From contig OZ024742.1 of NCBI GenBank assembly GCA_964016885.1, forward strand, positions 180,234,001 to 180,298,000: a stretch of 64,000 nt of DNA, in the 5' to 3' direction. Positions within the stretch are counted from its first letter, which is position 1. Each line of letters opens with the position of its first letter. Positions 23,178-23,934 of the stretch are shown here, piece by piece. Position numbers and translations under genes: made by a program. The notes under the pieces are model-generated. The model had not been told where the DNA came from. It saw only the letters and a program-made list of their open reading frames with translations, and ran no database searches. This DNA is from Eledone cirrhosa (lineage: Eukaryota).

Positions 23178-23378
23178 GACTCCATATATATATATATATA
23201 TATACATATATACATATATACATATATATATATATATATATATATATATATATATATATATATATATATATATATATATATATATATATATATATATATA
23301 TATATATATATATATATATATATATATATATATATATATATATATATATATATTTTTTTTTTATTTATTTTATAGAAG

Positions 23379-23431
23379 GAGCTTCTACAGGACTAGTACT
23401 GTTTCATTCAGATGAAATCTTCAGGAAGCTC
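23379..23431 (-). ncRNA. Type I hammerhead ribozyme motif
   Basis: GAGCTTC-CTGAAGA-tTTC atct GAAt-GAAA-CAG tactagtc CTG-TA-GAAGCTC: perfect 7-bp stem I, stem III CAG/CTG, GUA triplet; short stem II with a U-U first pair. Confidence 0.8.
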
Positions 23432-23435
23432 TCAT

Positions 23436-23488
23436 GAGCTTCCTGAAGATTTCATCTGAATGAAACACTACTAGTCCTGTAGAAGCTC
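23436..23488 (+). ncRNA. Type I hammerhead ribozyme motif (mirror copy)
   Basis: Same as 23379-23431 except stem III CAC instead of CAG. Confidence 0.75.
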
Positions 23489-23934
23489 TTTCTATAAAAT
23501 AAAAAAATTTTACTCTGCCATGTATTGAGTACCTTACTTACTGTGGTTATCCCCGACTCAACCCGGGACCTACGTATATATATATATATATATATATATA
23601 TATATATATATATATACACCCACACACAGTAGTGAGAGCCATAGAAACCATGTCTAATATGGAACATAACAAGTAAGACTGGTCAGTCCATCTCGTCTGG
23701 TTTTGGACTGTGACAACCTGTCCAACCCCAACATGGAAAGAGATTAAAAGGATGATGAGAGAGAGAAGAGTGGGAGGGATACAGTTAGAGTGAGAGAAGC
23801 ATTTTAAGGACTTTTCCTGGATAAAGCTATTGTTAGCCTTGCAAGCCTCATGGCATGATTCATACACATATTTTACATCCAACTGTCTTTCCATGCACCA
23901 ATCTCTTTAGTCACCTGTTACACTACTCAAGGAT

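Follow-up and report, generated by a model that had tools for sequence, protein, structure and literature searches.

A hammerhead-bearing palindrome in Eledone cirrhosa as a stub of a Hydra-type Penelope-like element, probably formed by twin priming to the capped 5' end of its RNA

In the twin priming of L1, the second target strand primes an inverted cDNA. Viroid-like RNAs can carry ribozymes of both polarities. Both were compared with the locus described below, and its closest described relatives lie among the Penelope-like elements (PLEs), for which we draw on the available parts of the papers cited here and at the close. It is standard for PLEs to carry pLTRs inverted head to head, with a tail on one side only (PMC8557442, PMC3846280). 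The formation of these inverted ends is named as an open question in PMC8557442, and self-priming on an antisense template has been proposed for it in PMC3846280. Within the PLEs, the Hydra clade is marked by an RWK motif, DKT, cysteines in the linker and endonuclease (EN), (TA)n targets and hammerheads, in elements generally below 3 kb (PMC8557442). Frangieh et al. (2024, PMC11167929) worked in vitro with a purified protein, that of the Poseidon PLE of Anolis (PAc), which cleaves both strands of the target and extends each of them. Two internal reverse transcription start sites bound its tail, the protein is predicted to be a dimer, and hammerhead cleavage is unneeded, the template being the uncut RNA (PMC11167929); inverted arms and the cap are not treated in the available text of that paper. 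PLE hammerheads themselves are described as weak and dimer-dependent, and opposite-strand pairs of them lie 100-700 bp apart in Schistosoma (Cervera and De la Pena 2014, PMC4209133). An extra G copied from the RNA cap has been described for full-length L1 and for the AMV reverse transcriptase (RT) (PMC4038843, citing Gilbert 2005 and Volloch 1995); the available part of PMC7353768 does not mention an extra G. A literature search, mostly outside subscription papers and drawing on partial texts, did not find twin priming or a cap-derived G proposed for PLEs.

The stretch of DNA analysed here, referred to as the window, comprises 64,000 nucleotides of the Eledone cirrhosa assembly GCA_964016885.1 (contig OZ024742.1, positions 180,234,001 to 180,298,000 of the forward strand), and all positions below are those of the window. 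A palindrome is centred on 23432-23435. The first-pass annotation had described here two 53-nt hammerhead motifs on opposite strands, 4 nt apart and differing at one base, and its coordinates were borne out: the minus-strand motif at 23379-23431 has the family majority sequence and a predicted cut after 23386, the plus-strand motif at 23436-23488 has a predicted cut after 23481, and both GUA ends lie where they had been placed. Outward from the centre, 32 nt match, 23468 is mismatched and a further 20 nt match, which completes the 53-nt motifs. The mismatch at 23468 is a private G-to-C change in the plus arm that breaks one stem III pair, and a further difference lies just outside the motifs at 23489. 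The symmetry reaches 23360-23507, in 72-nt arms with 3 mismatches. The feature does not end at 23507, as an earlier estimate of about 155 bp had it: the tail of the plus arm runs to 23574 and a second (TA)n follows it.

The whole insertion occupies 23354-23574 (221 bp) and has (TA)n on both sides, as do the ends of nearly every family copy displayed. The left target microsatellite (23184-23353; TRF period 2, 85 copies) is the long (TA)n that had been reported directly before the palindrome, and the right one (23575-23616) begins with a TAT common to the element RNA sequence. At 23354-23378 the minus-strand short arm has its outer end, in which the A/T run varies between copies and where a first internal RT start site would lie, at about +60 to +76 of the RNA. 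The two arms meet at a 4-nt filler (23432-23435) specific to the window copy, and each faces it with a G at position -1 (23431 on the minus strand, 23436 on the plus strand); both Gs are non-parental, the long copies having C there, and each was probably copied from the RNA cap. Position +1 of the tailed arm is the A at 23437. Beyond the palindrome, the plus arm alone extends through the rest of the parent's 5' leader (23489-23574), including a family-wide PLE tail of about 70 nt, to the putative second start site of RT, some 45 nt short of the ORF ATG as judged from full-length copies. One segment of this tail, 23525-23545, is conserved between families above its surroundings and forms, on the minus strand, a perfect splice-donor-like motif. 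Its read depth in public runs far exceeds that on the arms, and the segment may be a protein-binding or start-site signal. Further along the window is a 37-bp minisatellite of 9.7 copies (24176-24534), a lone related copy of which lies at 23925-23963.

Copies of the arm were sought in the 3.0-Gb genome assembly. A 24-nt core gave 2,441 exact matches against 0 for its reversed control, which is far beyond chance, and a genome pattern search requiring two head-to-head cores no more than 30 nt apart found at least 761 palindromes, a lower bound given that both anchors had to be exact. Family copies are built like the window copy, with one arm continuing into the shared tail of about 70 nt and the other stopping near +60, where it meets (TA)n. 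Among 96 fetched palindromes, tail-selected loci included, 88 paired a tailed with a short arm, 5 had two short arms and 3 had two tailed ones. The centres of 79 of the 96 were classifiable and comprised 51 junction types, a variety inflated by a sample partly picked for non-A at +1, the unselected list of 50 loci being mixed as well. Some are microhomology joints, some are blunt, and others hold fillers copied from arm sequence close by.

Several further observations concern the family and its relatives. At one locus (L029:1360-1500) a 10-nt piece of the arm, reiterated many times in tandem, makes up the junction filler and resembles the outcome of repeated slippage synthesis, and at another (L100:1100-3750) a unit of 1,055-1,061 bp with an inverted pair and promoter is repeated three times in tandem. 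Different PLE families stand side by side in the same (TA)n tracts at eight loci (L003, L010, L012, L024, L026, L039, L048 and L096), and fragments of further DKT-type PLE families lie near family-1 copies (L101:1436-3278, minus; L103:610-1155; L104:4594-5061, minus; L282). A second, larger related family (L323-L352), with 11,383 exact matches of a 29-nt core, has the same TATA, hammerhead, tail and palindrome build and a two-sided change in stem I. The third group (L353-L382; 2,984 matches) is more diverged, shares this build and has G as its start base. In the mixed locus L316:1370-1730, tailed and short arms of family 2 are each joined to family-1 pieces around (TA)n; this can be a nested insertion or a rearrangement.

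The parent of these stubs is visible where arms continue past the usual stopping point, as 43 of 100 unselected arms do, into shared upstream sequence. The same arm stands at both ends of 4.27-kb units encoding RT and C-terminal GIY-YIG motifs. Full-length copies are laid out as pLTR, ORF, a repeat-rich 3' region of about 2 kb and a second pLTR, often with an inverted copy in front, and the distance from hammerhead to hammerhead is 4,266 bp in L301. Partially tandem or inverted pLTRs with the tail at one end were seen in L301, L297, L298, L302 and L304, the last of which has its inverted arm fused straight onto the RT ORF. By eye, a 772-aa open frame in L278 contains RT motifs A, B and YRDD followed by LVY..YIG, and the parent protein has RWR (L301), DKT, YRDD, a CxCx5C linker, and CxxC and CxH in the endonuclease, with a single Cys between LVY and YIG and no CCHH. 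Searches of Pfam with five fragments and the 772-aa frame, and of PDB, returned zero matches for RT or endonuclease. Going by motifs called by eye in the translated sequence, the parent is a PLE family with Hydra-clade features: it has DKT for DKG, the RWK motif in the form RWR, cysteines in linker and EN, and (TA)n insertion, although its unit of about 4.3 kb exceeds the clade's tendency to sizes below 3 kb. The window palindrome is, almost certainly, a stub of this Hydra-type PLE and not a twin-ribozyme element. The simpler explanation offered in the first-pass annotation, an extremely 5'-truncated PLE insertion with an inverted pLTR, was right as to the PLE and the inverted pLTR, the same arm flanking the RT/GIY-YIG elements; the extreme truncation is likely wrong, since the arms share a single stopping point marked by an added G, which is what complete copies up to the 5' end of the RNA would show.

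This fixed point was seen in two samples. Of 100 core-selected arms, 53 begin at -2 to +7, the remainder being spread up to 2.4 kb upstream, and of 31 tail-selected arms 18 begin at -3 to +8, 7 continue upstream and 6 stop elsewhere; a pile of arm starts at -42 to -67 was read as an alignment break at a poly-C tract and excluded. Upstream of it, TATAAATA stands at -29 in long copies (mutated in one L301 copy), and, as judged by eye, related families keep the TATAAATA TATA box at -29 to -32 while the spacer diverges. The ORF ATG follows at +184 or +186 in full-length copies. The fixed inner end, its distance from the TATA box and the position of the ATG together indicate that the stub is the element's 5' leader from the likely transcription start, for which the A at 23437 (+1) is the probable base.

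The base just before this start is often a non-parental G. In 42 long copies, positions -1/+1 read CA in 40, AA in 1 and CT in 1; both window arms carry G at -1, as do 213 of 352 arms having non-A at +1, where the partner arm can supply some of these bases. Where the partner cannot supply it, G was found at -1 in 38 of 69 arms, as against 31 of 207 neighbouring filler control positions (Fisher p about 3e-10, on counts made non-independent by two arms per locus and a sample partly selected for non-A). Counted by eye, the 83 listed arms that follow six A/T bases have G at -1 in 52 cases, A in 12, C in 11 and T in 8, and with six A/T bases in front neither target nor parent offers that G. Other families were chosen for the same count since their stem I would generally be expected to template T, whereas that of family 1 could template G: the first 100 of 316 matches have G in 54, A in 23, T in 14 and C in 9, and the 63 listed other-family arms retaining the +1 G have G in 42, A in 11, T in 7 and C in 3 (both by eye). 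A/T-flanked arms without the G at -1 number 31 of 83 and 46 of 100 in the two groups. The base at +1 is also often wrong (352 non-A against 777 A-with-non-C), which might reflect a modified or terminal template base. Taken together, the base counts suggest that the extra G was likely copied from the RNA cap; the same mark would be left if RT, or repair, added a C without a template.

The hammerheads would be carried along in these stubs because they occupy +1 to +52 of the RNA. Each 53-mer runs through stem I, CUGAAGA, a 3-bp stem II, GAAA and a stem III with palindromic loop, and then GUA, so that the type I core (CUGANGA, GAAA, NUH and stems I-III) is present in both arms, in the type I layout that had been assigned to them. 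Positions 10.1-11.1 are U-U in both arms and in related families, as against the usual G-C. Rfam returned no hammerhead model at gathering score or at E up to 10, the E-value scan giving only sub-gathering matches to miRNA-type hairpins. In folding calculations, the single-arm catalytic fold has -9.6 (minus) and -5.7 (plus) kcal/mol, compared with minima of -12.7 and -9.9, and two copies co-fold through loop III at -35.8 kcal/mol with stem II in another register. For the whole stub, the computed stem I pairing is about 1e-50 on either strand, and on either strand the antisense arm is transcribed first. The competition between a long hairpin and the catalytic fold, anticipated from the sequence, holds in these calculations for both strands, and the ribozymes of the stub are predicted to be passengers locked in the hairpin. 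Arms that begin at the cut site number 18, as against 2 for a control position; since stem I complementarity forms the joint in 13 of them, the excess gives no independent footprint of ribozyme cutting, and most templates would seem to have been uncut when copied. Between families, stem I shows the two-sided change, only N and loop II otherwise varying in the related family, which argues, at the level of sequence, that the fold is kept in the parent.

At their outer ends, the arms fall into two classes: 48 of 100 end at +141 and 48 at +65 to +76, local alignment overrunning in A/T, and both ends lie at TA in the RNA, matching the target. At the inner ends, 21 junctions have both arms at +2 with filler between them; 18 of these show different terminal dinucleotides, and C is the second added base at 27 of their 42 ends. 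Three palindromes (L136, L138 and L141) combine a tailed arm covering about +70 to +141 with a short arm covering +1 to +65, with zero overlap. Such pairs are rare (3 of 50; 0 of 31 when selected by the tail) and look as if a first RT had halted at a second one on the same RNA. Either arm may be the long one (L093, L094, L304), the short-ended arm being long in L093 and L304. A subfamily marker is common to both arms in 50 of 50 scorable palindromes (46 were not scorable), and a genome search for hybrid centres of family 1 and family 2 gave 0 matches; one RNA or one source locus would thus serve both arms.

We consider it probable, at roughly 70%, that the 221-bp (TA)n insertion in the window arose by twin priming to the capped 5' end of the RNA. 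Each nicked strand of the (TA)n would serve as primer for a separate cDNA, begun at one or the other of two internal sites in the 5' leader, the two arms being separate RT runs, and both cDNAs would run to the capped 5' end. Their ends would then be joined head to head, with microhomology end joining and filler synthesis presumably closing the centre. Priming in the 5' copy of the leader would give stubs, and priming in the 3' copy long arms. With somewhat less assurance, though still favouring it, we read such insertions as fossil 'strong-stop' products that unite a dimeric RT-endonuclease, tail-bounding start sites, a capped uncut RNA, read-through into the cap with frequent misreading of the first base, and end-joined cDNAs. 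If true, this strong-stop reading would account at once for the inversion, the tail on one side and the existence of the stub class, and would replace antisense self-priming. The stub itself is likely a dead end, because it has no TATA box, and its hammerheads are predicted to be inactive.

Two other accounts keep the PLE origin and differ in how the second arm is made. A single cDNA primed at the tail site might reach the RNA 5' end, fold back, prime a second arm on itself and join the other target end, in a manner akin to the self-priming of PMC3846280. The most frequent centres (9, 7 and 6 of 79) fit this, being short hairpin-like joints, and the marker shared between arms in all scorable palindromes, together with the lack of inter-family hybrids in the genome search, also speaks for it. 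As the sole mechanism it is contradicted by the non-overlapping pairs of L136, L138 and L141, and it cannot yield a short-ended arm that is long (L093, L304), nor centres lacking a loop (6 of 79), nor a pair of complete ends whose terminal bases differ (18 of 21). We regard it as an unlikely origin for the window copy; some of the other copies may still have arisen in this way. Less likely again is ordinary 5' truncation with inversion. Here RT would stall at the base of stem I, and the extra G would be untemplated or templated by stem I; the inner end does coincide with the 5' edge of stem I, the stem I partner of family 1 could template the same base, and 13 arms are joined through stem I complementarity. 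Against this, RT meets the 3' strand of stem I first and long arms pass the site freely, the stop keeps its TATA distance in several families, and G dominates even where stem I would give T (42 of the 63 listed arms, by eye).

To the remaining two accounts we give very little weight. A discrete, self-propagating twin-ribozyme element, viroid- or retrozyme-like and with one hammerhead per strand, would agree with one motif on each strand, with at least 761 palindromes and with the recurrence of a few centre types. A genome search for copies with the same central junction, the check that the first-pass annotation had itself proposed for such an element, yielded variable centres, and the 51 centres among 79 largely refute it. 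Its suggested kinship with both-polarity hammerheads of viroid-like RNAs likewise found no support, the arm being the pLTR of an RT element. Moreover, the stub is without a TATA box, its units are inverted and not tandem, and no monomer would be set free by cutting. On either strand transcription reaches the antisense copy first, with the minute stem I pairing predicted above, and the few arms that begin at the cut site can mostly be put down to microhomology. An assembly or library artefact (a fold-back chimera) at the window locus has in its favour that, in four of 24 public sequencing runs, no contig or read crosses the exact window junction and none spans the stretch; the best public runs share 0.63 of sampled words with the flank and are probably not from the source animal. 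The arms, however, are told apart by private bases and end asymmetrically in the way typical of the family. The same construction recurs at 761 loci in long contigs, and in public run X1 two short-read contigs read through palindromic centres that have small gaps and belong to other types.

Inverted hammerhead pLTRs are known PLE products, and the value of the present locus lies in the stub population as a data set. Hundreds of young stubs offer a testable model that ties the two-strand, two-site priming seen in vitro (PMC11167929) to genome structure. They would map the promoter and start of a Hydra-type element from DNA alone, point to the copying of RNA that its ribozyme has left intact, and are predicted to be a potential source of perfect hairpin RNA of about 70 bp against the parent's leader.

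As far as the available parts of the cited papers allow, twin priming to a capped 5' end would place the family among known systems as follows. By its motifs it resembles the Hydra clade of C-terminal EN+ PLEs (Craig et al. 2021, PMC8557442), having RT followed by GIY-YIG in one ORF, an RW-basic motif, DKT, a CxCx5C linker, CxxC and CxH in EN, a hammerhead in the pLTR, (TA)n targets, and an inverted copy with a tail at one end. It differs from that clade in its unit of about 4.3 kb, its microsatellite-rich 3' region of about 2 kb, RWR for RWK and its hundreds of minimal stubs (PMC8557442). With Penelope of Adineta vaga (Arkhipova et al. 2013, PMC3846280) it shares head-to-head inversion, junction palindromes, a tail on one arm, and a TATA box and initiator-like motif in the pLTR; two sense-templated cDNAs and a fixed, G-marked 5' point would set it apart from antisense self-priming as proposed there (PMC3846280). 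Compared with PAc, in which the start sites lie in the ORF and are non-homologous to the target, those proposed here lie in the 5' leader and share TA/TAT with it (PMC11167929). Its hammerheads resemble those of other PLEs in being type I motifs within the pLTR with a palindromic loop III suited to dimers, and depart from them in U-U for the conserved G-C at 10.1-11.1, in a 3-bp stem II and a 4-bp stem III, and in arms only 4 nt apart (PMC4209133). Like non-LTR retrozymes (10.64898/2026.07.22.740005), the stubs are small, non-coding, PLE-related and furnished with a type I hammerhead; retrozymes, however, are direct tandem repeats from which ribozymes cut out monomers, whereas the stubs are inverted pairs with a variable centre (10.64898/2026.07.22.740005). 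Finally, with L1 the family would share an inverted cDNA primed by the second strand and an extra G at complete 5' ends (PMC4038843 for the extra G). The pieces of L1 are non-overlapping and poly(A)-primed, whereas here the starts would be fixed and internal, and the two arms usually copy the same 60 nt.
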